A stretch of 63,625 nt of DNA, filler included. It is 8 parts of 8 records of this genome, joined end to end, with 100 filler letters (N's around TTAATTAATTAA, not from the genome) between each part and the next. Parts side by side here need not be neighbours in the genome. Positions count along the whole stretch, not along the records: positions 24,099 to 32,747 come from SRR31147125_7585; 7 more parts are not named here. One strand, given 5' to 3'. The notes under the pieces were generated by a model, which ran no database searches, had not been told where the DNA came from, and was given only the letters and a program-made list of their open reading frames with translations. A program made the position numbers and the translations under genes. The first letter of the stretch is position 1; the number at the start of each line of letters is the position of its first letter. Of this stretch, positions 20,145-63,625 are shown one piece after another.

Positions 20145-21351
20145 ATGAAAGTGGTGATAAATTTGTTTAAAGGTGAAGAAATTAATTTCAATTATGATGG
20201 AGGAAATACACACGAAATAACTGATGACAAGATAAACGAAAAATATTTAGCTGGGGAAGTTAGAATCGTTACTGAACAAGCTAGATATCCATTAAATACA
20301 GTTAAAATGATGATAGAATCAGGTAATTATGAATTAAATCCTGATTTTCAAAGAAGACATAGATGGAGCATTGAAAAAAAATCAAGACTAATTGAATCCT
20401 TCATTATGAACGTTCCCGTCCCGCCAATTTTCCTATACGAAAATGAATATTCTCATTATGAGGTTATGGATGGACTTCAAAGGTTAACAGCTATTTATGA
20501 ATTTTATTCAAATAAATATGAATTAGAAGGTCTTGAATACTGGACTGAATTAACTGGGAAAACTTACGCTAACTTACCCGCTCAGATAAAAGAGGTGTTG
20601 ATAGAAGATACCTATCTTCAATCATACTTCTGCAAGAAACAGCAAAAGATCCAGGAGAAGCTCAAAATATGAAGCAACTCGTTTTTGAAAGAATTAACAA
20701 TGGAGGAATAAAACTAGAAGGGCAAGAAACTAGAAATGCATTATATGATGGGCCAATGAATAGAATTTGTATTGAGCTTTCTAGAGATTTTAACTTTTGC
20801 CAAATGCTTGACTTACCTCATGAAAATTCCTTACTAATTAAAAGTGGGATTGATAACTTGTTATTACAAAACCCTTTATTTCAAAAAATGACTGATGTCG
20901 AATATGTATTAAGATTTTTTGCTATGAGACAAGTTGAAAATGGTTATGAAGGCAGAAATCTAAGTGAATTTTTTGACTTATATCTAAAAAATGCAAATTT
21001 ATTTGAAAAAACTGTATTAGAAAATCTAAAAATATTATTCTTAGAAACTATGGAATTTGCGTATAAATTATTAGGAGTTAAAGCTTTTTCTTATGGAGAA
21101 ATAGAAAAGACCATTGGAATTGGTTAAATAGAGCTACCACAACCGTTTACGATCCGCTAACTTTTGTTCTATCTTCTCTTTTAAGTGAAAAAGAAATATT
21201 AATTTCTAAAAAAGAAATTATCAAAGAAGATTTGAAAAAACTATATGAAAATAAATATGAAGAATTTGAAGGAAGAAATAATAACAAATCTAATATTGTG
21301 AGAAGAATAAGTATATTCTCTAACTTCTTCAATAAATATTTAGGTGATTAA
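20145..21351 (+). CDS. DUF262 (GmrSD-N/ParB-like) protein; one gene with two frameshifts (~20590, ~21087)
   Basis: PDFQRRHRW, LIESF, DGLQRLTAI and FERINNGG..L motifs. The frames join at an A-run and a T-run; stop at 21351, 3 nt before the next ATG. Confidence 0.85.
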
Positions 21352-21354
21352 TTT

Positions 21355-22398
21355 ATGGAATATATGAAAAGGGAAATTGTTGAAAAAACGGATGAGTTAA
21401 AAAGATATTTATCTTTTATTGAAGAAGTAAAAAATATGTGTAATGATACTGATGAAACATCACATACATCATTAAAAACTATTATTAAAAAATTTAGAAA
21501 TAAAAAGGTTTATGACTATAGCATTATTATTATTATGTTATATGGACTATTAGAAAGCTTTCTAGAAAATTCAATCAAGAATTACCTTTTAAAGTTGAAT
21601 AAACTTGTTCCAACTTTCCAAGGTTTACCAACTAAAATAATTGAATCTCATACTTCTGTTTCGGTTAAATTAATTCCTAATTTAAAACTATCATCAAAAT
21701 ACAGTGAGATTAATGAAAAAGAAATTATTAAAAATTTAGATAGTTGTTTTGATGATAAAAAAGGGTATCGGTTAAATGTAGAGGCATATACACATCATAC
21801 AGCGAATTTTAGACCACAAATCATATCTGAATTTTTTTCAAATATTGGAATTACTAATATTCTAGAAAAAGTAAAAGTTAGTCAAAATTTTAAAGAATTT
21901 TATTATCATAAAAAGCAAGTTGAACCAAATACACTTTCTAACGATATTGTCTTTGAAATTCTTTCTGATTTAGCAGAAAGAAGAAATGAAGTCGCTCATG
22001 GAAATTTAACAGAAGATATTTTGGGAATAAGCTATTTAGAAGAGTATATTGAATTTATCAAGGTATTTTTGATTTCTATAAACGAAATCTTAATTAATGA
22101 GCTTCTTCCTATTGAATTTGATAATTCCAACAAAACCAAACTAAAATTAGTAAGAAATGTAATAAATAATAAAATTATTTGCGTAGAATTAAATTATTTA
22201 AAAATAAAAATTGGAGACATTATTTTTATTAAAAATGATAACGAAAATTGTCTAAGAAAAGGAACTATAATAAAACTTCAGCACGATAACAAAGAAATAA
22301 TTGAAACAAATGTAGAAGAAGTTATCCATGTAGGAATTGAACTAAATACGAAATTAAAAGATAATTATAACTATTACCTAAAAATAAACAACACCTAA
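21355..22398 (+). CDS. HEPN RNase (MAE_28990/RiboL-PSP-like) with a C-terminal beta-barrel extension
   Basis: Helix IIMLYGLLESFLE and RxxxxH motif RNEVAH (21982-21999); closely coupled to DUF262. Confidence 0.8.
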   Translation: MEYMKREIVEKTDELKRYLSFIEEVKNMCNDTDETSHTSLKTIIKKFRNKKVYDYSIIIIMLYGLLESFLENSIKNYLLKLNKLVPTFQGLPTKIIESHTSVSVKLIPNLKLSSKYSEINEKEIIKNLDSCFDDKKGYRLNVEAYTHHTANFRPQIISEFFSNIGITNILEKVKVSQNFKEFYYHKKQVEPNTLSNDIVFEILSDLAERRNEVAHGNLTEDILGISYLEEYIEFIKVFLISINEILINELLPIEFDNSNKTKLKLVRNVINNKIICVELNYLKIKIGDIIFIKNDNENCLRKGTIIKLQHDNKEIIETNVEEVIHVGIELNTKLKDNYNYYLKINNT

Positions 22399-24098: not shown

Positions 24099-24859
24099 TT
24101 TTTCGGCCCGGTTGCCTGATCGGTTGCCTGATCGGATGCCTGATCGGATTTTTCTTCCCCCTCACCCTTCCGGTCCACAGCCAGGGCAGATTCAAACCGC
24201 TCAAGGTCTTTTGGGGAAAACCGCCTGGGGGGTTCAGGTGCCAGTCCCATTTTCTCCACAATGGTGCCGAATCCGGGACGTGAAATCTCCACCAGGCCGG
24301 CCGGGTTGGATATATAGATTCCTTTTCCCCCCTGGAACAAAACAGACAGCTTTTTCCCCTCCACCATACCGGCGTACATGGATCCCCTGATACCGATGGT
24401 GCCCGAAGGCGCTTCTGTGGTGAAATTCTGGGGGGCGATGCGGGTGATGGCCCCGCCCATAACCCTGAAACTTCCCTCTTTCACCTTGATTTTCATTTCC
24501 GAAGACGGGTCATCCGGACGCCATAAATACCGGGAGATATCCATTTGGGTATTCTTGCCAAGGGTAAGGAGGGTATGGTCCCGGAACTTTAACTGGACCC
24601 GCCCAAAGGCCCCGGTCTTCACCGTATCTTTTGCAAATATGGGGGATTTCATCCCCAGGGGCCGAATCTGCCCGTCCAGGACCGCTGAGACATCCCCCCG
24701 GACCGCCACCACCGTGCCGGCAGGGATCTCTGAAAAAGCCCGGCCCGGCAGGAGGGCCAATACCAGGGCAACCAGGCAGACCAGGCTTAAAGCCGGACCG
24801 TGATGACGGGTCTGCCGGGACAGCCCCCTTCCTGAACCTTGCCATGGGGTTATACGCAT
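24099..24859 (-). CDS. Exported FecR-domain protein, 3' partial
   Basis: Signal peptide, then AGTVVAVRGDV, DTVKTG, F.DHT..TLG.NT, APSGTIGIRGS. A 12-bp tandem repeat at about 24108-24148 encodes (S/T)DQA. Confidence 0.8.
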
Positions 24860-26218
24860 ATTCCCTCCCTGTAATCCCCTGCTTGAGGGTACCCATAGAA
24901 AAGGTATTCCACTCCCGTCTGAACCATATTCCGGGTAAAGTCATAAAGCCCGATATTGGATAACGCCCGGGTACGCAGAACCTCGATTTTCAAATTCAAC
25001 CGCCGGGCCCTGTCCGGGGACTGCCACAATTGTTTACTCAGCCCGGCTTCAATATAGTGGATCCTGTCTTCCCTTTTCCGGCCAAAGACAGGATTCTCGC
25101 CCCTGTAATCAGATATCTGGTATTCATAACTCACCGTCCCTGTCAATCCTGGAACCAGCTGTCCCCTGATCCGGGCCCTGGCACCGACACGGTGATAGGC
25201 GTACTGGTCATCCCGGGCATCCTGGGCAGCCCCTGTCAAATCCAGGCCCAGCCATGAACGGCCCAGCAGCCAGTTGCCACTCATACCCAGTTCCCCATGC
25301 CATCCGTCCCGGTCGGCAGTCTGGAAATCCTGAATTCCCCGGAACAATACCCCGAAAGATGAAGCCGGGATGACAGAAAAAACAGCCCCTGTACCCGTGG
25401 CCCAAGCCCGGTCTGATAGGTGCTGCCGTCCAGTGTAAAATGGGTTCCGGTAAGGCGGAGCCCCAGGGTGTGCGGTCCCAGCATCCGGTCGGGGCCTGTC
25501 ATGACCCTTGTATAAAAGGTATTCAGGGCAGCGGTTTCCACGTAGAGGTTATGGACCAGGACGGCGCTGGTCTGCCAGGCCCAGGGTGAATAGGGGAAAA
25601 GATACCGGTGGAAAAGTTCGGCACCGGTATTGAGCACCCAGTCTTTATCCCGGTCTGAGGCCTCCCCGGTCAGTTCAATATCCCCCACCTCGCTTTGAAT
25701 AATCCGGCTGGAAGGGGCGGACCAGATATTATCGTTGTAAATCCCGCCCAGGGTGAGGGTGCCTGAAAAAAATGTTTTTTTTCAGACCGGTCGATCAGGG
25801 CCAGAAAATCTTCAATATTCTTTTTCACCGGTTCCGGCGGGTCTGCCGCCAGGACATCCCGGCATTGCTGCCTTGCCAGGTCATTCAGTCCGAGCCGGAA
25901 ATAGGCCCTGGCGATTTCGAGTTTCACCCGAAGATTGGCAGGATCCGAGATCAGCATCCGCTCGAAAACCATCACCGCCATTTCATAATTCCCGGATTCA
26001 AAGGCGGAACGGCCCAGATAAAAATTGACCAGCATATTGTCCGGATCCTGGTCAAAGGCCTCAAGAAACCGGGTATAGGCCTGGTCAAAGTCTCCCTGGT
26101 CAAACAGGGCGATCCCGGCTTCCATAGGTTCCTCATAAGCCGCCCCGGCCCAGGCTGACAGGCTCGCCGCCATCCATACGGCCACCATTGCCCATCTGAT
26201 AAAACCTGGTTTTTTCAT
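24850..26218 (-). CDS. TPR + outer-membrane beta-barrel protein (DUF560/Slam-like), frameshifted (~25765, ~25350-25390)
   Basis: Signal peptide and TPR helices (FYLGRSAFE..RVKLEIARAYF), followed by amphipathic beta strands ending SNIGLYDFTRN..GVEYLF. Confidence 0.7.
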
Positions 26219-26324
26219 GCCAGTCCCCTGGGCAAAAAAAGCCGGGACATAAAAAGGGCCTTTTTCGCCTAAATATTCGAAACCACAATAAGGATCGGAA
26301 ATCTGCGTTTGACTGCGTTTCAAA

Positions 26325-26353
26325 ACTATCACAGAATATGGAGCCAGTGTCAA
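26325..26353 (-). promoter_or_regulatory. Sigma70-type promoter for the TPR/FecR pair
   Basis: TTGACA-N17-GATAGT with TG extension; a GGGGCAG/CTGCCCC hairpin (26363-26385) closes the upstream operon. Confidence 0.45.
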
Positions 26354-26387
26354 GGGAGGATCGGGGCAGTGATCCCCCCTGCCCCAT

Positions 26388-27242
26388 TCATTTAAATCGG
26401 CCGGTCTGCCCGAGATACCCTTTGTTTTGAAGATACCGGATAGACCTGGCAGCCGTTTCAACGGCATCATGACTGTTCCGGCTCAGTTCAATATTGACCT
26501 GCCCCCGGTATTGAATCGCTTTAAAGGCATTGAAAATCGGTCCGAAGGCCATTTCCCCCTCCCCGAATTCCAGGTGAATGTGCCGGTGCTTTTGCATATC
26601 TTCCAGATGAACATTGACGATATCTTCTTTATTTGACCGGATGGATTCCGGCACATCTTTTTCCGTGATAAAGGCATGGCCGGCATCAAAGGTCAGTTTA
26701 AAGGATTCACTGCCCACCTGTTTTTTTAATTGTTTAAACTGGGATATGGTTTCCACAAACATGCCCGGCTCCGGTTCAAATGCAAGAAATACGCCCTGGG
26801 CTTGGGCCGACCGGCACAGGGTTCTGCACCCCTGGACAAGGTATTCCCATGCCCTGTCATCACTGATCTCACCGGGCTTTACCCCGGACCAGATGGATAC
26901 GGCATCCGATCCCAGTTCAGCGGCAATCCCAATGCATTTTTCTATAAATTCCATCCGGAATTGCCTGCCCCGGGGATCCGGTGAAATCAGGGTGGGATCA
27001 TGCTTTTTCCAGGGGTTGAGCAGAAATCTGGCCCCGGTTTCAATGACAGAGGAAAGATGATGTTTTTCCAGTTTTTTTTTAACCCGGGGGATATGGTCCT
27101 CTACATGTCTGTCCCAGGGGTTGAGGGCCCCATGGTCAATGGTGATGGCAATGGATTGGTATCCCAGGGAAGAGAGGATCTCAATGGCCGACCCAAGGGA
27201 ATGATGGGCAAACCCATTGGTGTTATACCCCAGCTTAAACAT
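26388..27242 (-). CDS. Sugar-phosphate isomerase/epimerase (xylose-isomerase-like TIM barrel)
   Basis: GYNTNGF, IETGARFLL, EPEPG, DAGH, HLED and IELS metal-ligand motifs. Confidence 0.85.
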   Translation of the reverse strand: MFKLGYNTNGFAHHSLGSAIEILSSLGYQSIAITIDHGALNPWDRHVEDHIPRVKKKLEKHHLSSVIETGARFLLNPWKKHDPTLISPDPRGRQFRMEFIEKCIGIAAELGSDAVSIWSGVKPGEISDDRAWEYLVQGCRTLCRSAQAQGVFLAFEPEPGMFVETISQFKQLKKQVGSESFKLTFDAGHAFITEKDVPESIRSNKEDIVNVHLEDMQKHRHIHLEFGEGEMAFGPIFNAFKAIQYRGQVNIELSRNSHDAVETAARSIRYLQNKGYLGQTGRFK

Positions 27243-28578
27243 CCCGGGCTCCCATCAATTCCATGAGAATGGGAAAGGCCTCTTTCATATGAATTTTAGA
27301 GGGAATATCACCGATCCTGTTTCCCGAAAGGATAAAAACCGCCATCCCATTTTTATCCGCCGCCGGAGCGCCGTGGGAGCCTTTAATCAATTCCGGTGTC
27401 AGGGGAATCTTCATGGTCTTTTTATCAAAAAACAATTCCAGGGGATCATACCCCGGCTTGCGATGGATATCGATATTGCCTGCAAAATCAGGTGCCTTTT
27501 CAGGGTCGCCCCACCAATAATAGGAAAACCATTTATCCCTGTCCGATATGGCCACAAGGTCCCCTGAGCGTTCATGAAAAATCTGCCATTCCTTTTGGGC
27601 GGCCGGGGTCAATACCTTGTTCACACCCTCAATGCCTTCAATAAAGCCTTTAACCGCTTCCAAATCAATACCCGTATTAAGATAGACATGGGCCACCTGG
27701 TGATCCGCCATGGCAAATGCAGGGCTCAGTTCCAGGTCCGGATACTCACGCCCCTCAATGGTACGGACCTTGAGGAAACCTGCCTCCCGAAGCCGGGTGT
27801 TCAGGGAGACGGCCCCTGAAACCTTTGTGATGGAATATTCGGAAAAGGCGCAAATCACGGCATCATCCCTGATACCCATATCTTCTATGGTTTCAAGGAA
27901 TTGCCCCATCAACTTATCCAGCACGGCAAGGTCCTCATCAATCAAGGGATCGTCAGGTCCCAGCCGCTGGCAGGAATAATCCAGATGGGGAATATAGGTC
28001 ATCATAAAATGGGGCCGATCCGTTTTGACAACTTCAATGGCCGCCTCCATGATCCACTCGGAGGCCTTTGCCGAGGCAAATGGCCCCCAATAGTCCATGA
28101 GGTTAAAGGGCCGGCCGATCGTCCGGCAAAGGGACTCATATTTACCCACAGGCTTGGAATAGCACCATTGAATCAGGCCCTCATCGGTGTGCATGGGTTT
28201 GGGGGTGATGATGATATCGGCCCTGCCGTGGAGGGTATTCTGGCAAAAAAGGACGGCGCTTTTAAAATCCGGGCGGATCTCCTTTAATGTTTCCCAGATG
28301 GGAGGTCTTTGCACGAGACTTCTGTACTGGTCCCAGAAACTGATTTCAAACCGGTCCCGGTAATAGAATCCATTGGCGACAATGCCGTGCTCCCCCGGCG
28401 GGGCACCGGTGGTAAAGGAGGCCTGGCCGGGCAGGGTCAGGCAGGGGAACCAGGGGACCATGTCCGCCCGTTTTCCCTTTTCCATTAAGGTTGAAAAATT
28501 CGGCATCCGTACAAGCCGGTCCAGAAGCTCAGGGGAAAGCCCCACCAGGTTAAAGCAAAACAGATAGGGATGTATCAT
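27235..28578 (-). CDS. Nucleotide pyrophosphatase/phosphodiesterase (alkaline phosphatase superfamily, EboF-like)
   Basis: PCLTLPGQA..TG..HGIVANG (catalytic Thr), YIPHLDY, SEY, DIHRKPGYDP.ELF, KGSHG. Confidence 0.85.
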   Translation of the reverse strand: MIHPYLFCFNLVGLSPELLDRLVRMPNFSTLMEKGKRADMVPWFPCLTLPGQASFTTGAPPGEHGIVANGFYYRDRFEISFWDQYRSLVQRPPIWETLKEIRPDFKSAVLFCQNTLHGRADIIITPKPMHTDEGLIQWCYSKPVGKYESLCRTIGRPFNLMDYWGPFASAKASEWIMEAAIEVVKTDRPHFMMTYIPHLDYSCQRLGPDDPLIDEDLAVLDKLMGQFLETIEDMGIRDDAVICAFSEYSITKVSGAVSLNTRLREAGFLKVRTIEGREYPDLELSPAFAMADHQVAHVYLNTGIDLEAVKGFIEGIEGVNKVLTPAAQKEWQIFHERSGDLVAISDRDKWFSYYWWGDPEKAPDFAGNIDIHRKPGYDPLELFFDKKTMKIPLTPELIKGSHGAPAADKNGMAVFILSGNRIGDIPSKIHMKEAFPILMELMGARDV

Positions 28579-28593
28579 ATGACTTCCTTTTTT

Positions 28594-29468
28594 TCAGGTG
28601 ACCTTAAAGAGGCGGACGGAAAAGACCGCCGGAATATACAGCAGCAGGATCAGGGCCGACAGGCAGAGGGGGGCCCGTCCGGACGCAATGATAAAATCCA
28701 GGAAAATAAGGGAAATTAAAAGACGCTTCATCACCCTTTGATAATCCTGGGGTCCATGGGTTTCAAGCAGCCCCAGCACCCGGGATGAGAGAAAAACGGC
28801 AAAACAGATCAGGACCGGCACCATGCCGAATACCGGCAAAACGCCTTTCAGGTATAAAAAAAAGCCCAGGCGCAGGAAAGGCCCAGGGCCAGGGCGCAGA
28901 CTCCGGTATGGACCGGGGCTTTTCCGCCTTGAGCCTCTTTGCGCCCCAGCACAGTGACCCCGTAGATATAGATCATGGGGATCAAGGGGATCAGCAGCCA
29001 TCCGTCAAAGGGCTGAACAGACAATGCCATGAGGAAATTAAAATACCGGCATGCGGACATAAACAGGGGGCCCGAAATCCCCTGGGATTTGAACACCCCG
29101 TCATAGAGCAGAATGGCGGATACCAGAGCCAGACTGACACAAAAAGGCAGAACACCCGCCATCCGGGCAAAGGCGGCACCGGCTGCCAGCAGCATAATAC
29201 CCAGCAGACAGGCGGCCTGCCTTGTGACCCGGCCAGAAGGGATAGGGCGGTCCGGCCTATGGATCCTGTCGCTGGGGGCGTCAAAAAAATCATTTAATGC
29301 CATGCCTGCCGAATAAAAACAGGAAGATGCCAGGAGCAGCCAGACCAGGGCGCTTATTTTTCCAGTCCCAGCCCCTGTAATCAGAAATCCGGCCAGGATA
29401 TCGGCCTGGGCGGTGAACATACCGGGCAGCCTGATCAGTTCAAGAAAGGTGGCAATTTTTTTATCCAT
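28594..29468 (-). CDS. UbiA family prenyltransferase (EboC-like), frameshift at the homopolymer run ~28860
   Basis: LELIRLP, GMALNDFFD...D...RPDRPIPSG, YD..FK and multiple TM helices. Confidence 0.85.
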
Positions 29469-30290
29469 GGCCCCAGACCTTTTTTAAATAGGTTCTTGCC
29501 TCCATCGCAGCCTGTTCAGGCCGGTCCAGGTAGGGGTATAGCTCAATGGTCACATAATCCCTGTATCCGGTTTGATCTATGGCCCTGAGCACGGCCCTGA
29601 TGTCGATGCCCCCTTCCCCCGGCAGAATATGCAGATGCTCCCTGGTTTCAGGGATATCTTCCAGGTGGTAATGCCGGGTAAAGGGTTTAAGCTTATCAAT
29701 GGCTGCTACAGGATCTTCACCCACGCAGTAAAAATGGCCCACATCAAAATTAAGCCCAAGGTTGGGATGATTGAACTGGTTGATAAAATCGAGAAATTCG
29801 TCCGATGTCTGTATCAGCAGATCCGGCTCCGGCTCGATGAGCAGGAAGATCCCTTTTTCCCGGGCCAGGGGCAGGACCTGGGAAAGGCCCTGGATAAAGA
29901 CGCCGATCGCCTCGTTCCTTGACATGCCGTCCACAGGCCCCCCGGGCTCGGTGGAAACGGTCCTGGCCCCCAGAGCTGCAGCCAGGTCTATACATTTTAA
30001 TGTATACTCGACCCTGAGTTGTCGGAATGATTTGTCCGGCTCAATCCAGGAAGGGTGGTGAAAATCCTGGATCTCACACATCATAAAGGCATTGAGATTG
30101 GATATCCCAAGCCGGTGGCGGACGATCATTGCCTTAAGATCAATGATATCCCTATCTGTCAAATGGCCGGGCCAGGCATGGGGGGTGTCGCACATGATTT
30201 CCACCCCGTCATACCCGGCACCGGATACGGCCTCCAGGGCATTTTCAAGGGAAATTTCCTGAATGCATTGGTGCTGAATGCAAATTTCAT
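29461..30290 (-). CDS. Second sugar-phosphate isomerase/epimerase TIM barrel, frameshift ~30255
   Basis: True start MKFAFSTNAF at 30290, joining ..GYDGVEIMCD.PH; motifs EPEP, DVGH, HLED, IELY. Confidence 0.85.
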
Positions 30291-30309
30291 ATTGTCCTTT
30301 CCGGCCGGG

Positions 30310-31518
30310 TTAAAGTCTGGGAACCATCAAATTCAATGAAATCAATGAATAGGCCGAAACCAGGACAGGATCATTTTCCCACCACCTTGCCGAAGGGTTG
30401 ATCCAGGACCCGTCCTCCCTCTGATTCTGAATCAGTTTCACGGCCAGTTCTTTCCGCCAGTCAACTTCCCGGCCGTCCGTGGTAACCATGAGGTCATCCC
30501 CGTAGACCGTGAGGGCCTTGGCCATGGTATGGTAATAATAATAGAGCCCCTGCTGGCCCACCCCCGGATTTTCATCCAGGGTATAATTGGATTTGAGCCA
30601 GCCGTAGGCGGCCTGAACCCTGGCATCTTCTTTATCCAGCTTGGCATAGATAAAGCTGAGCAGGCCGGCATAGGTCATGGACCCGTAGGAACGCAGGGCG
30701 GTCTTTCCCGATGCAAGGGTTTCTTCCCCTGCCTTGGAACTGCCCGGATAATAGACAAACCCGCCCTTGTTTTTTTTGTCCGCACTGGACCAGGCCTGGT
30801 CATTGGAGCCCGGCAGGTTCTGGCACCGCTGGATGAACTTTAAAGCCGCCTCCCAGTCCAGGGAAGATTTCTGCAGCCCCTTAAGCTCCCTGTAGACTTG
30901 AAGCTGATCGTCGGATTCAAGGAATTCGCTGGCCCGGAGGGCTTCCAGGGCCATATAGGTATTGGACATATCCGAATGGTCCTTGGTTCCGTACCCGATG
31001 CCCCCGTCAAATTTCTGATCTGTGGCCCCTTTTTCGCCCCGGTCCAGCTGGAGGGTGGCGATATAGCGCCTGGCCTTGAGGATATGGGGATGGTATTTCG
31101 TCTCATTGGCGGCCAGCAGGGCCATGAGACAGATGGAAGTATTATAGTTGGGCAGCCCCTCCTTAAAAATCGCCCCGTTTTCGTGGGCGTTGGAGACAAT
31201 AAACTCCAGGGCCTTTTCAATGAACCGTGGCTTTTCCACGGCGTTCCGGTGCAGGGGCGAGGTTAAAAAGGCATAGGTCACAAGGCCGGTGATGGCCGGG
31301 AACCCGGGGTTGGACCAGGATCCGTCCGGGTTCTGGGCCTTTTGGAGATAAGTGTACCCCATGTCCAGGGTCCGTTTAATCTCGTTTTTCAGGGACAGTG
31401 TATCATGGCCGGACTTCAGTGTCTTTTCCACGCCCATGGCAGGGCCATAGATAAAAATAAGTATAATGGCCAGGGAAAATACATTAAACAAATATCTCTT
31501 CTTGGGTCGAATTTTCAT
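30310..31518 (-). CDS. Exported prenyltransferase/squalene-cyclase repeat protein
   Basis: Signal peptide; QNPDGSW, DGGIGY, GGFVY, YGSMTYAGLLS, LYYYY and QREDGSW repeats. Confidence 0.85.
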   Translation of the reverse strand: MKIRPKKRYLFNVFSLAIILIFIYGPAMGVEKTLKSGHDTLSLKNEIKRTLDMGYTYLQKAQNPDGSWSNPGFPAITGLVTYAFLTSPLHRNAVEKPRFIEKALEFIVSNAHENGAIFKEGLPNYNTSICLMALLAANETKYHPHILKARRYIATLQLDRGEKGATDQKFDGGIGYGTKDHSDMSNTYMALEALRASEFLESDDQLQVYRELKGLQKSSLDWEAALKFIQRCQNLPGSNDQAWSSADKKNKGGFVYYPGSSKAGEETLASGKTALRSYGSMTYAGLLSFIYAKLDKEDARVQAAYGWLKSNYTLDENPGVGQQGLYYYYHTMAKALTVYGDDLMVTTDGREVDWRKELAVKLIQNQREDGSWINPSARWWENDPVLVSAYSLISLNLMVPRL

Positions 31519-31904
31519 ATTCCCTCCTGTAAAAAAATGTACGAATCGGGTTCTATATGGTTACGATCTACGTCCCTGTTCCAGGGGCATCGTTCTGATA
31601 AACGGGTATAAACCGATGCTTAAACATGCAATTAATATACCGATCTCAGCATGACCGCCCGGATCACTCATGTTCCCGGGATTGATTTCGCCGATTCGGG
31701 ATCTAAACAGGTCAGATGGAATATAATCCGCCAATTTGAGAATTTTTTTCACATAATTATGAGTTTTTTTTCTATTCCTATGGTTCAATGGTTTGAATTG
31801 GACCTGGCCGGTACCCAGAATATCTGCCCGGCATGCTTTCCGAACCAGCCTACGACCCCGTGAATATTGGGTTAAAAAGAATGTCAGTTTTTATCCATGT
31901 TAAG

Positions 31905-31920
31905 TGGCATATTTTATGCA
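31905..31920 (+). promoter_or_regulatory. Sigma54 (-24/-12) promoter upstream of the PEP-CTERM gene
   Basis: TGGCAT-N5-ATGCA with GG and GC at canonical spacing. Confidence 0.55.
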
Positions 31921-32099
31921 GAACTTTTATATAGCATTTATTTAAGTACCACCTGCATTTTTCCTAAATATTCCAGTTGGCACTATGTTTCTCCTCTGCT
32001 GCTCAGTTCTCCCCTATATGCGGGTTGGCGGCGATTAAACAACGGCAAAAGGGTTAAGCCCGACAGATAATCCAATTATCAAAAGGAGGTAAAGGAAAA

Positions 32100-32747
32100 A
32101 TGATCAAACGTGTACTTTATTCATTCATTTTCATGGTGACAGGATTTTTATTGGCCGCGTCGGTTTCCTGGGCGACATACATGGCCGAAATCACCTATGA
32201 CTATACCGGCGGACCGGGCAGTTATGTGTTTGACTTTACGATTAAAAACACCTCTGACGGCGGCAGCACCGGTCCCTTGGACTATTTTTCCATTGATTTC
32301 GATGCCGGTGATGCCAGCCAGTATACCCTGATTCCGGGGGATTCCGATTTTGATGCTCTGGGAACCTATGCCTGGGTCGCCAATAACGGATGGTTTTCAG
32401 AAGCCTCTGAATATGATCCGGGATTCGGCGGAACCCCGGCCAATGTCCTGGCTGATGATTCGGTCTTCGGCGGGGGAGGCGGGGGCATCGCCCAGGGGGC
32501 AAGCCTTGGGGGATTCAAGGTGAAGTTTGACTATGCCGGCCCCCTGGCCCCTGAAAACATGAGTTTTCCTGGATCGCAGAATTTGGCACCAGCGACGTTG
32601 ACAACGGGGGAATTGATATGGGCGGATACTGGATCCTGGGAGATGACGCAGGGCAAACGGTTTATGAACAACAGGGACCGCCCCAGCCGCCCGTTATTCC
32701 CGAGCCCGGCACCATAATCCTTCTGGGATTCGGTCTTCTGGGGGTTG
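32100..32747 (+). CDS. PEP-CTERM sorting-domain protein, frameshift ~32565, 3' partial
   Basis: AAGGAGG RBS, signal peptide, Gly/Asp-rich body; C-terminal PVIPEPGTIILLGFGLLGV in the shifted frame. Confidence 0.85.
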
Positions 32748-58189: not shown

Positions 58190-58834
58190 GATGATGGGAT
58201 AGGTGACAAAGTCGGAATGTTTTTTGACAATGTGTCGGATGGTGTACTCTTCGGTGAAATCCTGCTCACCCTCTTCAACATCCTTCAGCTGAAGGGTGAT
58301 GGTGGTGCCTCTGGAGGCTTTTTCCACCTCTTCCACGGTGTAGGATCCTTTTCCGTCGGATTCCCATTTCACACCGGTTTCCGCTCCGGCCGCCTTGGTG
58401 GTCAACGTGATGTGGTCGGCGGCAATGAAAGCGCTGTAGAACCCGACGCCAAACTGCCCGATCAACTCGGGGCTGATGAGGCCATTTTCTTGTTTTGATC
58501 GCTCCAGCGCTTCCATGAACGCTTTTGTTCCACTTTTTGCAATGGTACCGATGTTTTCATTGACTTCATCATAGGTCATGCCGATACCGTTATCGGAAAT
58601 TTCAAAGCGTTTTTTTTCGGGATCGGTGGAGATTCGAATGTGATAGTCGTTATCACCTTCGAAGAGCTCCGGCTCGGTCTGCTCTTTGAACCGGGCTTTG
58701 TCGATGGCGTCCGATGCGTTGGAGACCAGCTCCCGGACAAAAATTTCTCTGTTGGAGTAGAGAGAGTTGATGATCAAGTGCAGAAGCTGCTGAACCTCGG
58801 TTTTAAATTCACATGTCTCTTGTCTGTTACTCAT
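58190..58834 (-). CDS. htpG: Chaperone HtpG (Hsp90), 3' partial
   Basis: [43 protein letters not shown]. Confidence 0.96.
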
Positions 58835-59027
58835 TGTTTCTCCTGAAATTGCTGTGGTTGAAGCGTGTGGTTTTTTTCCCGTCAATTATTTGTTATAGTT
58901 TAGTAATCGACATAAATAATTGATGCAAAAACGGGATTGTCAAGGCAATCCGACCCGCCTTGTGCAGGTTTTTTTTGAAGCGGTTTAATAAAAAGGGCAT
59001 TGCATATGGGAAAAGAGGGAGGAATAG

Positions 59028-60890
59028 ATGACGGTAACCATCAATCGATCCAACTGGCAGGAGCACCTGACCACCCCGGAGTGCGTCCTGGAGCGTATCA
59101 AACCGGGGATGACCGTTTTTGTAGGGACGGGGCCTGCATCTCCCCGAACGTTGACACGGGTGCTGCTCGATTATGATGAGCACAATCTCAGAGACATCGA
59201 GCTGGTGCAGCTGGCGGTGATGGGAGATACCATTCTATCCGTCGAGAAATTGGACGCCCCCAATTATCGGTTGAAGACTTTTTTTTCCGGTTATGTCGCC
59301 TGGGACACCATTTCATCCGGCCGGGTGGATTTGATTCCGGCGTATTCATCAGAGATTCCAAAGATTATCAAAGAGGGGAAGGTCTCCATCGATGTGGCGT
59401 TCATCCAGATTACTCCGCCCAACGAAACCGGATACGCCAGCCTGGGAGTGGCTGTGGATGTCGCCCGGGAAGCCATCGATCAGGCGACCCTGGTGGTCGG
59501 AGAGATCAATCCCGAGATGCCCTATACCTTCGGGGATACGTTTGTATCTATTCAAGATTTCGATCTTCTGATTCAGTCGGAAAAGCCGCCGCTTCACTAT
59601 GGGCCTCAGAAGGCTTACACCCAGATGGATCTGGTGGCTAAAAATGTAGCCTCCGTTATTGCCGATGGCGATTGTTTGAGTTTCTCCCACGGGGCCATGT
59701 TCGATGCGTTGGTACCGCATTTGATCAACCGGCAGGATTTGGGAATCCATTCGTTTTATTTTACAGATGCCGCTGCCACACTTGTCAAAAGCGGTGCCGT
59801 GACCAACTCAAAAAAATCGCCGTTTCGGGGAAAGTCCCTATGCTCATATGCGCTCGGATCCCCGTCCCTGATGAAGTGGCTGGATCGAAATCCCCTTGTG
59901 GAGTTTCAGGGGATCGACTGGGTCTGCAATCCCCGGCTCATCGGCAGCAACCCCCAGTTCGTTGCACTTTATGAAGCCAGAAAGGCCGATTTGCTGGGGG
60001 GGGTCGCCTTTCCCCTGAAGGGCACCGTTGTGACCGGCCCCGGTGAGGCCATGGACTTCATCACCGGGGCTGAAATTTCCCATGAGGGGTGTACCATTTT
60101 CGGACTCCCCAGTCGAAATCTGAAAGGGGAATCCAATATCATGTTGGCGTTGGAATCATTCCCCAACCAGCTGCGGCTCCGGGAGTCGGTGCATATGATC
60201 GTGACGGAATACGGCATTGCCAATTTGAAATGGCGACCCCTTCGGGAGCGGGCCCAGGCCATGATCGACATCGCCCATCCCGACGATCGGGAGCGGCTCA
60301 TGGAAGGGGCTCGGCAAAAGAAGTTAATTTATGCCAATCAGATTTTCATTCCCCGGTCGGCTCACCTCTATCCGTCCCACATTGCCGCATCCCACCGCTT
60401 CAAAGGGGGCATTACCCTTCGGTTTCGTGCCATCAGACCGTCGGATGAGTCCTCCATGCGGCGGTTTTTCTATCGCTGTTCCGATGAGATGATTTTTTAT
60501 CGGTTTTTTTACTCCATCAAGACCATGGATCACGACAAGATGCAGGAATACGTCAATGTGGATTACAGCAGTGAGCTATCCATTGTCGGGCTCTCCGGAA
60601 TGGCGGATGATGAGCGGATTGTGGCTGAAGGGCGGCTCTTCAGAAATGAGCGAACCAATTACGGTGAGGTGGCATTCCTGATCCAGGACGAGTTTCAGGG
60701 GGTCGGGGTGGGGTCATACATGCTTGCTCTTTTTATCAGCGAAGCAAGAGATCGGGGAGTGAACGGCCTCAGTGCAGAGGTGCTTGCCGACAATCAGGCC
60801 ATGATTCGGGTGTTTGAAAAAGCGCAGTTGCCCATGGATGCGCGCCTTGAAAACGGGGTCTATAAATTGACCATGCATTTTCAGGATTAG
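59028..60890 (+). CDS. Acetyl-CoA hydrolase/CoA-transferase-like domain fused to a C-terminal GNAT
   Basis: DVAFIQITPP..GY.SLG..VD, VTEYGIANL, ERA.AMI.IAHPD.R, then YRFF, EVAFL..D.FQG.GVG, DN.AM..VF. Confidence 0.85.
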   Translation: MTVTINRSNWQEHLTTPECVLERIKPGMTVFVGTGPASPRTLTRVLLDYDEHNLRDIELVQLAVMGDTILSVEKLDAPNYRLKTFFSGYVAWDTISSGRVDLIPAYSSEIPKIIKEGKVSIDVAFIQITPPNETGYASLGVAVDVAREAIDQATLVVGEINPEMPYTFGDTFVSIQDFDLLIQSEKPPLHYGPQKAYTQMDLVAKNVASVIADGDCLSFSHGAMFDALVPHLINRQDLGIHSFYFTDAAATLVKSGAVTNSKKSPFRGKSLCSYALGSPSLMKWLDRNPLVEFQGIDWVCNPRLIGSNPQFVALYEARKADLLGGVAFPLKGTVVTGPGEAMDFITGAEISHEGCTIFGLPSRNLKGESNIMLALESFPNQLRLRESVHMIVTEYGIANLKWRPLRERAQAMIDIAHPDDRERLMEGARQKKLIYANQIFIPRSAHLYPSHIAASHRFKGGITLRFRAIRPSDESSMRRFFYRCSDEMIFYRFFYSIKTMDHDKMQEYVNVDYSSELSIVGLSGMADDERIVAEGRLFRNERTNYGEVAFLIQDEFQGVGVGSYMLALFISEARDRGVNGLSAEVLADNQAMIRVFEKAQLPMDARLENGVYKLTMHFQD

Positions 60891-60982
60891 AAATGGGGTT
60901 CAAGGGAGGGGGCATTTGCCTGATTTGGGGACAGATTTCAAATTTCTCCCGACTGGCCTAATGGGGATGAAAGGAATATGCG

Positions 60983-61450
60983 TCAGAGTGTCAGCAAATT
61001 GAATCCGGTGGCGGGATCCGGTGCCCGCACCCCATCAATACCCATCAATTCCATGATCACCACCTCCATGTACAGCCAAACCAATACCCCGTTTCTGGCG
61101 CATCCGGTGATGGAGCGATTCTCTCTCCCGCAGGATAAATGGAGATGAAGAATCGGCTCCCCCGCTTCATTGGGAAAGAATGTACCGATTCCTGCCGATT
61201 CATGCACGCCGTCCAGAATATGATTATAGAGCGGCATGGTTGGTGAAACAGGCGTTTTGTCGGGATCTTTTGGACCGGTCACCAGATTGCTCTTTTCATC
61301 CGCCCCTCCAATGGTCCAAAGAACGCCTCGTTTCAGATTTCGTTCCTTTGCAAATCTCTCCAGTGTCTCGTGAATGACTTCTCCCTGTTCCAGTCGAACG
61401 ACAAACGTTCTGCCGACGGTTGCTTCCCGGTATTTGATGATGACCTCCAA
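60983..61450 (-). CDS. PPC domain (DUF296) protein
   Basis: FVVRLE.GE, IGG, G.P.LHLH.S.GR, EVVI.EL. Confidence 0.8.
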   Translation of the reverse strand: MEVIIKYREATVGRTFVVRLEQGEVIHETLERFAKERNLKRGVLWTIGGADEKSNLVTGPKDPDKTPVSPTMPLYNHILDGVHESAGIGTFFPNEAGEPILHLHLSCGRENRSITGCARNGVLVWLYMEVVIMELMGIDGVRAPDPATGFNLLTL

Positions 61451-61466
61451 AAATTGTCGTGTTTGC

Positions 61467-63098
61467 TTACGGCAAAAAATGCTTTCGTTTTAATTTATGT
61501 TTTTTAATCTTGTAGTGGAGCAGCTGTCGGGAAATCCCCAACTGTTTGGCTGCTTGGGTGACATTTCCTTGAGAGGACTCCAAGGCCTGAATGACGGCAA
61601 TTCTTTCATGTTGGGTCTGGCTTTGAAAGAGTCCGATATGGTCATCGGATATGGACGGAGTTGAAAGAGGCTGCGTCGGCTCAGGTGTAGGTAACTGAGA
61701 TTGCGAGTGCAATTGTGGTTGGGATTGGGACGGCAACGACGACGAAAATGGGGAGTGAGGGTGAGGTCGGGGGGGGGGATGAGAGCGGCGTCGTTTCCGG
61801 TGGAGAGGGTGAATTCGAAGGTGATGTCAATGGATTGGGCATTGGTGCTTTTTCGGCACTATTCTCCACAGGAACAAACGCATTCATGTCCGGAGATAAA
61901 TGCTGCACATCAATGATCTTGTTATGTCCCACAAGATTCATGGCCCCTTCCATGAGGTGTTCCAGCTCCCGAACATTGCCCGGCCAGTTGTAGGACATGA
62001 ACAGCTCCATCACCCTCTCGGAAATTTGTTTGACATTGGTGCCGAGTACCGGATTCAGCTTTTCGATAAAGTGGGTGGTGAGTTCCGCCATGCCCCCTCT
62101 GCGGTCCCGAAGTGGCGGAATCTTGATGAGCACAACGCCGAGTCGATAGTATAGATCGATTCTGAGTTCATCCCGCTGGATCGCCAGCCGGGGATCTCGG
62201 CTGACGGAGCTGATGATTTTGACATTCACGTCGATCTCATGGGGAGAGCCGACCCGTCGCACTTTTTTTCCTGGAGTACCCGCAAAAGCTTTGCCTGGAG
62301 ATGAATCGGCATGGCCAACAGCTCATCGAGAAAGAGGGTGCCCCCTTCAGCGACTTCAAACAAGCCGGCTTTGTCCATGGCGCCGGTAAAGGCCCCTTTG
62401 GTGGTGCCGAAAAGCAGGCCCTCCAGCAGATCATGGGGGATTGCCGCGCAGTTCACCGCCACATACCGTTTTCCATGACGGCTGCTGTGGTTGTGTATGG
62501 ATTGGGCGAACAGTTCCTTACCGGTACCGGTCTCCCCCAGAAGCATGACCGGTGAGGCGGAGTTGGCCGCCTGCCTTGCAATTCTCACGGCACGCTGAAA
62601 CAAGGGGCTGTTGCCGATGAGATCGGCAAATGAGAAGCGGGTACCGTTTCCAAAATCGGGACGGCATTCCCGGGAGCTACTCATGGGAGTAGAGTGTTGG
62701 AGCAGCTGATAATCTTTGACAAAACAGACCGTGCCGGTCACATTCCGGTCGGTGAACAGGGGGTAGACGCTGGTGATGGTATGGGTCACCTTTCCCGAGA
62801 TGGTGCGATAGAAAAAGGTGCGGTTTTTAATGGCGGCCCGGCGGGAAATACACTGCATGACCATGCTGGTGCGATCGTTGAGTTCGTAGATGTCGGTGAC
62901 TTTGAGACCCAGTACATCGCTGGGATTTAAGTTGTCGATGGCGGCCTGGGCCTTGTTGTAAAAGAGAATTTTCCCGCTCAAATCGGTGATGATCACCCCG
63001 TCATCCAGCCTGTCCAGTAAGTCGATGAAGTCGATGAAGTCGATGCCGGCCACGTCCGGATGGGGGGAGATGTTATGGAGACCTGACGGGGAAATCAT
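61467..63098 (-). CDS. PAS-domain sigma54-dependent activator (RocR-like), two frameshifts (~62265, ~61770)
   Basis: PAS domain, GETGTGKE, NCAA, GAFTGA, LFLDE, WPGNVREL, Pro/Ser linker, and Fis HTH AAKQLGISRQLL.YK. Confidence 0.88.
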
Positions 63099-63487
63099 CA
63101 GTGATGACTGCAGCCTCCGCCGCCGTCAACGCTGTGTCCGATGCACACTTCATCTGCCTGAAATTCCTGAAGTTCCCCTTTGTTGAAAAGATCGAGATTG
63201 AACTGGATGGAGCCTTCTTTTGCGCGAAATACTTTGATTCCTTCCACTTGAAGTTTTCTTAGCGCCCCTTTGCCGATGCCGCCCACGACCACCGTATCCA
63301 CCCGGGTCTCCCCAAGGGCTTTGATGGGCTGACACTTGCCGTGATCGTGGTGCAAATCTTTATTTTTAAGAATCTCATGATCTCCGGCCTCAGTGTCCAC
63401 CAAGACAAAAAAGGGGGCGGAACCAAAATGGTTGTAGACGGATCCGATCAGTCCAAGATCGCTGTTGGAGGGAAAAACGACTTTCAT
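63098..63487 (-). CDS. NifB/NifX family (FeMo-cofactor-binding-like) protein
   Basis: HFG.APFF..VD, HG.C.P, VVGGIG.GA..KL...GIKV, Cys/His tail. Confidence 0.85.
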   Translation of the reverse strand: MKVVFPSNSDLGLIGSVYNHFGSAPFFVLVDTEAGDHEILKNKDLHHDHGKCQPIKALGETRVDTVVVGGIGKGALRKLQVEGIKVFRAKEGSIQFNLDLFNKGELQEFQADEVCIGHSVDGGGGCSHH

Positions 63488-63625
63488 GATAATTAACTCC
63501 GACACATTGTCAGGTGATGACTCAAATCAATGGCGTGTATGGTCTGAGTGAATTGATACTCTCTACTTTATTTTCCATCAATTCAATGAGCAAGCTTTTA
63601 AAAAGATCAAGTTCATGGAATAAAA

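Follow-up and report, generated by a model that had tools for sequence, protein, structure and literature searches.

A five-gene ebo-like locus headed by an exported terpene-cyclase-fold protein: candidate half of a split, EboE-less pathway

The 63,625-nucleotide stretch of DNA analysed here (the window) contains, between positions 26388 and 31518, five closely packed genes that resemble the ebo operon and are headed by the gene of an exported protein with a terpene cyclase fold. Do these genes constitute a reduced operon with a pathway of its own, as a first-pass annotation had proposed, or a piece of a larger cluster, and which function does the exported barrel protein have? Our preferred answer, to which we give about an even chance for both of its parts taken jointly, is that the five genes represent one half of a split ebo pathway without EboE and that the barrel receives the prenylated product of this pathway in the periplasm.

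The ebo operon is composed of eboA to eboF (Yurchenko 2016, PMC5133447). According to the accessible part of a recent preprint, ebo genes are genetically tied to saccharoquinoline and thallusin, a seaweed growth signal, and eboB, eboC, eboE and eboF are each required in Stieleria. EboC farnesylates hydroxyquinolines and was suggested as a possible cyclising enzyme. In actinomycetes, Ino1 and two isomerases probably replace EboD, and 27 verified producers, with Maribacter, Stieleria, Saccharomonospora and Nostoc among them, stand against 8 non-producers (bioRxiv 10.64898/2026.05.21.724671). Further related literature comprises PMC9235831 and PMC12904256. The five genes are as follows:

30310..31518, minus strand: gene 1, exported single (alpha/alpha)6 barrel of 402 amino acids (aa); PF13243 match (E 8e-10), SQHop_cyclase_C-like; signal-peptide-like N-terminus; D183-M-S-N instead of DxDD
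29461..30290, minus strand: gene 2, xylose-isomerase-like small TIM barrel 'a', about 276 aa; PF01261; frameshift near 30248, an assembly error
28594..29468, minus strand: gene 3, EboC-like UbiA prenyltransferase; NF035940 is the best NCBIfam match; frameshift near 28855, an assembly error
27235..28578, minus strand: gene 4, EboF-like phosphodiesterase of the alkaline phosphatase superfamily; PF01663 match (E 3e-56); without hydrophobic N-terminus
26388..27242, minus strand: gene 5, small TIM barrel 'b'; PF01261; likely of the Ino2/Ino3 class

All five are co-directional, with intergenic gaps of 19, -8, 15 and -8 bases. Coordinates, gaps and the matches to PF13243, PF01261, UbiA, PF01663 and PF01261 agree with the tight packing and the gene families described before.

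A probable split ebo cluster without EboE

The window consists of eight contigs joined by N44-TTAATTAATTAA-N44 linkers, and the operon is located on the contig 24099-32747 (8,649 bases, GC content 0.527). Two contigs (24099-32747 and 58190-63625) have a GC content of about 0.52 and the other six of 0.27-0.38, so the window comprises mixed organisms. Because of this difference, the remaining contigs are uninformative on the operon host. Since the nearest named relatives of gene 1 among the matches listed belong to Desulfobacter, Desulfobacterium and Desulfotignum (72-79% identity), the host is likely a sulfate-reducing bacterium of this group. Genome-wide statements on it rest on related genomes and on sequencing run X1, from which this DNA may have come. 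In the window, one missing base apiece shifts the reading frame of genes 2 and 3. A run X1 contig of 16,046 bases covers the entire stretch and restores the base at both 30248 and 28855, so that both genes are intact. The frameshifts are assembly errors, and an interpretation of genes 2 and 3 as pseudogenes was ruled out.

Two of the four enzyme genes are most similar to ebo genes. The N-terminal piece of gene 3 scores 174 bits against NF035940 (EboC), complemented by a C-terminal match; intact relatives reach 202-239 bits at a cut-off of 250. Gene 4 is 36-40% identical, over most of its length, to the proteins at the eboF position in Bacillus, Streptomyces, Geobacter and Haloferax clusters and thus provides the EboF-type phosphodiesterase of the ebo/thallusin core. 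The two TIM barrels (about 280 aa) are different: with 35.5 bits they fall far below the EboE cut-off of 250, whereas genuine EboE proteins (about 380 aa) in other loci score 417-437 bits, and none of five related genomes has an EboE above the cut-off. The earlier equation of a TIM barrel with EboE was consequently rejected. Gene 2 is 66% identical to its counterpart in the related locus L002 and 49% to the TIM barrel preceding eboC on a B. cereus plasmid. For gene 5, the closest match, with 42% identity, is the isomerase sited between SCO3242-type eboC and eboA in Streptomyces ebo clusters. Ino1 was found in four and EboB in all five of the related genomes. The B. cereus plasmid and H. volcanii pHV3 encode Ino1, two TIM barrels, TatD, UbiA and EboF; EboD and EboE are unannotated there. 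In metagenome loci retrieved with gene 4 (best 80 of 300, gene orders counted by hand), TIM barrel 'a', eboC and eboF follow each other in 44 of 80 cases, and EboE is present in none. Because of its absence from the relatives, the matching plasmid sets and the ratio of 44 to 0 among these 80 loci, the locus is assigned, at the level of sequence comparison, to a widespread ebo subtype with Ino1 and two TIM barrels and without EboE.

Compared to the ebo operon, the locus shares the EboC-like UbiA protein and the EboF-like phosphodiesterase, and its organism apparently encodes EboB elsewhere. In contrast to the ebo operon, it is devoid of EboD and EboE, in place of which it has the two small TIM barrels and, apparently, Ino1, and no EboA was seen: the operon contig and the loci L001 and L002 gave no match, a genome-wide search for EboA not having been made. 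The exported barrel and its frequent neighbour YdjY (see below) are not mentioned for the ebo operon in the accessible parts of the two sources (PMC5133447; bioRxiv 10.64898/2026.05.21.724671). The actinomycete-type cluster (ino1, SCO3242 eboC, isomerase, eboA, eboB, eboE, eboF) uses the Ino1 route as well, and its isomerase is the above-mentioned relative of TIM barrel 'b', but it keeps EboE and EboA and lacks the barrel. The EboE-less sets on the B. cereus and H. volcanii plasmids are therefore a closer match. A small conserved gene (about 100 aa, no Pfam assignment) stands ahead of eboB in most clusters (e.g. L017:12345-12659, L059:15644-16000) and on a second run X1 contig.

Is the operon reduced or split? 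The order of all five genes recurs in L001/L110 (one contig, final gene truncated), in L002 and in L109 (both ends cut). Along with the co-occurrence of the gene 1 family with EboF across genomes, this confirms that gene 1 is conserved with the other four. In the same relatives, the seemingly missing genes are close by. ino1 is divergent from the barrel gene in L002, ydjY and eboB are located 4-6 kb upstream of the barrel in L001, and L003, L008 and L012 contain ino1-ydjY-barrel-TIM-TIM-eboC-eboF plus eboB in a single run. Altogether, eboB, ino1 and ydjY adjoin the barrel in L002, L003, L008, L012 and L111. When the run X1 contigs were compared with the eboB/ino1/ydjY region of a relative, a second contig (7,558 bp) had matches of about 500 bases to eboB, 66 to ino1 and about 31 to ydjY. 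Its depth of 86.6 resembles that of the operon contig (90.6), and by this matching depth it apparently belongs to the same organism. EboB is thereby indirectly accounted for, by the depth-matched contig and by five of five related genomes. For a cyclitol-forming enzyme, the organism itself provides the 66-base ino1 match and its relatives Ino1 in four of five cases. The absence of EboB and a cyclitol-forming enzyme noted in the first-pass annotation is true of the operon contig but not of the organism, as far as the second contig can be assigned to it. The designation 'reduced' is unsupported in view of L001, L002, L003, L008, L012 and L111, and the possibility that the first-pass annotation had named as refuting its proposal, a fragment of a split cluster, is what was apparently found: eboB and parts of ino1 and ydjY seem to lie on a separate contig of the same organism. 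The first part of the reading introduced above, a split EboE-less pathway of which these five genes form one half, has the joint probability given there.

Fold, motif and distribution of the exported barrel

In squalene-hopene cyclase (SHC), the middle aspartate of the DVDDT motif is the catalytic acid. An AlphaFold2 model of gene 1 with a predicted local distance difference test (pLDDT) score of 91.5 is a single (alpha/alpha)6 barrel. Foldseek ranked MstE and the two myxobacterial monodomain proteins 8paj and 8pak first, with template modelling (TM) scores of about 0.5 and 12-14% identity, along with SsDMS. VIA Z amounted to 24.7 for SHC (root mean square deviation 3.2, 280 aligned residues), 24.6 for 8paj, 24.2 for SsDMS and 21.7 for MstE. 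The (alpha/alpha)6 barrel with QW-type repeats typical of class II terpene cyclases is present, and a hydrophobic N-terminus was detected by hydropathy in gene 1 and in 60 of 63 aligned family members. Thus, the previous description as an exported terpene-cyclase-fold protein is corroborated by N-terminus, PF13243 match and predicted structure; the structures nearest to its modelled (alpha/alpha)6 barrel are those of class II terpene cyclases. Barrel forms of 530-670 aa (P0157, P0194, P0199, P0207 and others, one from a Planctomycetota metagenome-assembled genome) carry extra N-terminal toroid repeats.

This fold suggests a rival to our preferred reading: the barrel might act in the periplasm as a class II cyclase of a non-canonical type and close the drimane rings on the farnesylated product of the ebo pathway, with E381 or D183 and a Tyr/Arg network as acid, and strains with a linked receptor would import and mature a linear precursor. 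We regard this as possible, although doubtful. Its nearest structures are the monodomain and drimenyl cyclases (MstE, 8paj/8pak, SsDMS) and SHC, and MstE acts on a prenylated aromatic substrate with a DxD instead of a DxDD acid, as reported in the accessible parts of two papers (PMC12414744; PMC9401909). Moreover, no protein is named as the cyclase in the accessible text of the thallusin preprint (bioRxiv 10.64898/2026.05.21.724671). The positions Y125, Y176, D183, N186, Y256, Y278, Y283, N317, R378 and E381 of gene 1 are conserved; D183, N186, R378, E381 and six tyrosines reach 85-99% in 133 distant representatives, and copies linked to ebo genes and copies linked to receptors have identical conserved residues. 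However, neither DxDD nor DxD is conserved among these 133 representatives. They have DLSNT/DMSNT instead (D183 96%, S185 78%, N186 93%), and a local alignment, weak at 10 bits, pairs DVDDT of SHC with DMSNT of gene 1. Furthermore, sugar-acting barrels (glycoside hydrolases, epimerases) attain VIA Z values of 20-22 compared to 22-25 for the cyclases. MstE (6SBB, a monodomain class II meroterpenoid cyclase) and 8PAJ/8PAK thus share with gene 1 the single (alpha/alpha)6 barrel and QW-type repeats, but gene 1 differs by the missing DxD, a signal-peptide-like N-terminus, its YdjY partner and its occurrence in genomes without the prenyltransferase. Functionally the locus is ebo-like yet without EboE, and the barrel is without the acid motif, so neither is an outright member of its family.

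The distribution of the barrel is at variance with a universal pathway step, too. Among the barrel loci (best 80 of at least 587 found), 15 have ebo neighbours belonging to both Ino1-type and EboD-type clusters, and the other 65 are mostly from Verrucomicrobiota. Cultured strains named among the matches include Geobacter sp. OR-1, with the EboD type, Desulfosarcina ovata and Desulfobacter curvatus. In three lineages, the barrel family tracks EboF, though many ebo clusters lack it. In the order of a Desulfobacterium genome (251 genomes), 12 have the barrel, 8 EboF and 6 both (Fisher p 8e-8). In the class of Geobacter OR-1 (201 genomes), the numbers are 9, 12 and 9, with both genes on one contig 3-15 kb apart (p 2e-13); for 151 genomes from the phylum of a Roseibacillus genome they are 55, 49 and 44, the genes being mostly far apart (p 5e-22). 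By contrast, no plasmid record matches the barrel while 60 hold EboF; a profile search of four ebo plasmids gave one weak partial match of 22 bits. Only one of three EboF-positive Pseudomonadota genomes has a barrel, 76 of the 80 EboF-led loci, many of them short, gave no match, and a renewed search of five EboF-only genomes with a wider profile yielded nothing in four and a partial match in one. Because it was not found in plasmid records, in two of three EboF-positive Pseudomonadota genomes and in 76 of 80 EboF-led loci, the barrel is unlikely to be a universal step, which speaks against the cyclase.

In 52 of the 80 barrel loci, a gene with a YdjY domain is found within 1.2 kb of the barrel. 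In one it is elsewhere, two could not be tested, and in 25 it was not found. The barrel gene is usually 3' of ydjY, and in P0174 the two are fused. Hydropathy reveals a hydrophobic N-terminus in each of the 13 YdjY proteins aligned. The YdjY model (pLDDT 80) has no clear fold match (no Foldseek hit below E 0.001, best VIA Z 5.7), and a complex prediction for barrel and YdjY, run without alignments, gave no verdict at a score of 0.00. Could both proteins form an independent envelope module that merely shares regulation or a mobile region with the ebo genes? This would be in line with the 65 of 80 barrel loci without ebo neighbours, with the presence of YdjY in E. coli among the control genomes and with the lack of significant clustering of ebo adjacency on the tree (57 of 500 shuffles gave a value as low). 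Nevertheless, the barrel is found next to two distinct types of ebo cluster in several lineages, and it accompanies EboF even in genomes that have these genes scattered (44 of 49), so we consider such a module very unlikely.

Several other genes recur near the barrel. In 24 Verrucomicrobiota-type loci, an unannotated gene (about 310-330 aa) is located upstream of it, usually before ydjY (e.g. L045:8858-9784, L004:8197-9189). Large exported PKD-domain proteins recur beside ydjY-barrel-ebo clusters (L011, L025, L059, L063, L017, L001); no CxxCH heme motif was present in those checked. In Desulfobacterales, an O-methyltransferase recurs next to ebo genes or to the distant clade of barrels (L096, L098, L100, L106, L112). 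A recurrence of PQQ-type/heme dehydrogenases beside ebo loci, as on two plasmids, was dropped, as one query matched its own locus only and a second gave two weak further matches in loci without ebo genes.

Candidate roles: periplasmic receiver or enzyme

In a general model of cofactor uptake, periplasmic or surface binding proteins are paired with TonB-dependent receptors. In Desulfobacterales, a TonB-dependent receptor is encoded within 2.4 kb of the barrel in six of six genomes without EboF but in none of six with EboF (p 0.002). In five genomes with a receptor-linked barrel, EboC, EboB and a second EboF query were all unmatched. Such copies occupy at least three branches of the tree, one of them sister to the window's clade, and two ebo clusters also include a TonB-dependent receptor. 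The barrel resembles cofactor-uptake binding proteins in being an exported protein beside a receptor in genomes without synthesis genes. It differs from them by its enzyme-like fold and by being kept in makers, too; its ligand is predicted. In addition, Nostoc ebo mutants, according to the accessible part of the report, have a defect in periplasmic export (PMC6282210), which also points to the envelope. The words 'periplasm' and 'TonB' do not occur in the accessible text of the thallusin preprint (bioRxiv 10.64898/2026.05.21.724671).

The following pathway can be envisaged. Ino1, encoded elsewhere, would convert glucose-6-phosphate to inositol phosphate, a reaction established for the enzyme class. 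The two small TIM barrels, EboB and EboF would form a hydroxylated aromatic head, replacing EboD and EboE as the gene substitution suggests. EboC would farnesylate this head at the inner membrane, as the thallusin preprint shows for homologous enzymes. Barrel and YdjY, whose N-termini resemble signal peptides, would receive the lipid product via a tyrosine-rich cavity. In makers, it would reach the barrel from the inner membrane; in relatives without ebo genes, it would enter by the adjacent TonB-dependent receptor, ligand and direction being deduced from the gene arrangement. Since saccharoquinoline and thallusin have been linked genetically to ebo genes, a prenylated aromatic derived from a cyclitol is a more likely product than a prenyl-sugar-phosphate lipid. 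Of the 'prenylated sugar or cyclitol lipid' proposed before, the prenylated and cyclitol-derived character would hence stand and the sugar-phosphate lipid would not. Similarly, an action of gene 1 outside the cytoplasm is plausible, whereas the proposed cyclisation is unproven and the canonical acid motif is missing. To our knowledge, no enzyme has been assigned to the cyclisation and ring-opening steps of the ebo pathway, and we know of no use of its product to the bacterial makers.

We therefore favour, at about even chance, a periplasmic receiver of the prenylated product that acts with YdjY in both makers and importers and is not a classical cyclase. This reading is preferred to the cyclase because the barrel is kept by makers and apparent importers, is missing from many ebo clusters and lacks the canonical acid. 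Catalysis by the barrel may still occur given the conserved polar residues.

A number of observations weigh against the receiver. Its ligand and activity are predicted, and the near-invariant D183, N186, R378 and E381 resemble an active site as much as a binding site. Production of saccharoquinoline or thallusin is not known for any EboE-less cluster, and the preprint counts EboE as core. A receptor adjoins the barrel in none of 11 barrel-only Verrucomicrobiota loci, one of which has an eboF-like neighbour scoring under the cut-off, nor in any of 9 EboF-positive ones. The receptor profile was derived partly from the loci on which it was tested, and one EboF-positive Desulfobacterales locus offers no more than 0.9 kb to one side of the barrel. 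The genomes are mostly incomplete and kinship among them inflates the Fisher values. Finally, the assignment of the second run X1 contig to the operon organism is based on depth alone.

The conserved polar cavity residues would also suit a different enzyme of the periplasm, which might attach the prenylated head group, remove it or remodel it, e.g. by loading it onto a partner protein or by ring opening. The fold is common to prenyltransferase beta subunits, epimerases and hydrolases, O-methyltransferase genes are near the barrel in L096, L098, L100 and L112, and in the accessible text of the preprint the step from saccharoquinoline to thallusin has no known enzyme (bioRxiv 10.64898/2026.05.21.724671). 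As the alignment reveals no evident conserved Cys/His metal site and YdjY is the sole conserved candidate nearby for an acceptor protein, this appears improbable. Alternatively, barrel and YdjY could constitute a periplasmic module for the maturation of thallusin-type meroterpenoids, in which a DxDD-less cyclase closes the terpene rings beyond the inner membrane and anaerobic non-makers import the precursor via the TonB-dependent receptor and finish it. We consider this unlikely, but not as remote as the other periplasmic enzyme.

Surroundings of the operon and implications

The following features flank the operon:

about 26338..26387, minus strand: GC-rich hairpin 3' of gene 5; RNA fold of -26.3 kcal/mol
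32100..32717, plus strand: divergent exported PEP-CTERM-like protein; NF033947 match (E 0.0025)

Both the divergent gene and the hairpin that had been proposed to bound the operon are present, but the hairpin is absent from the list of intrinsic terminators, in a promoter and terminator scan that itself performed at chance level, and a co-directional gene follows beyond it. Downstream, on the minus strand, a Slam-like TPR/beta-barrel outer-membrane gene (26218-24850), interrupted by assembly breaks only and with bases restored in the 16,046-base run X1 contig, is succeeded by a FecR-domain gene (24859-24099); neither was seen in related loci. A homologue of the PEP-CTERM-like protein adjoins ydjY and eboB in L001. 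At about 31905 (plus strand), a motif directed at the PEP-CTERM-like gene resembles what we take to be the sigma-54 consensus. L003 and L015 have similar motifs upstream of their ebo runs, and response regulators of the sigma-54 type are encoded at the flanks of L001, L003, L093, L100 and L112. A neighbouring low-GC contig contains, at 20145-22398 (plus strand), a GmrSD_N gene spread over two frames and, after it, a RiboL-PSP/MAE_28990 HEPN gene, likely a defence pair.

In the literature covered, with subscription journals outside it, no published description of the barrel-YdjY pair or of the EboE-less subtype was found. This subtype would escape screens that demand EboB, EboC, EboE and EboF together. 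The locus supplies two candidate exported proteins that follow the ebo pathway across lineages, and relatives that keep the exported pair and a receptor alone are expected if the product is taken from neighbours. If barrel and YdjY served maturation, the ebo product would be a community-shared, vitamin-like factor beyond an algal signal alone. If uptake is true, it would serve some purpose within the envelope of anaerobic bacteria remote from seaweed.

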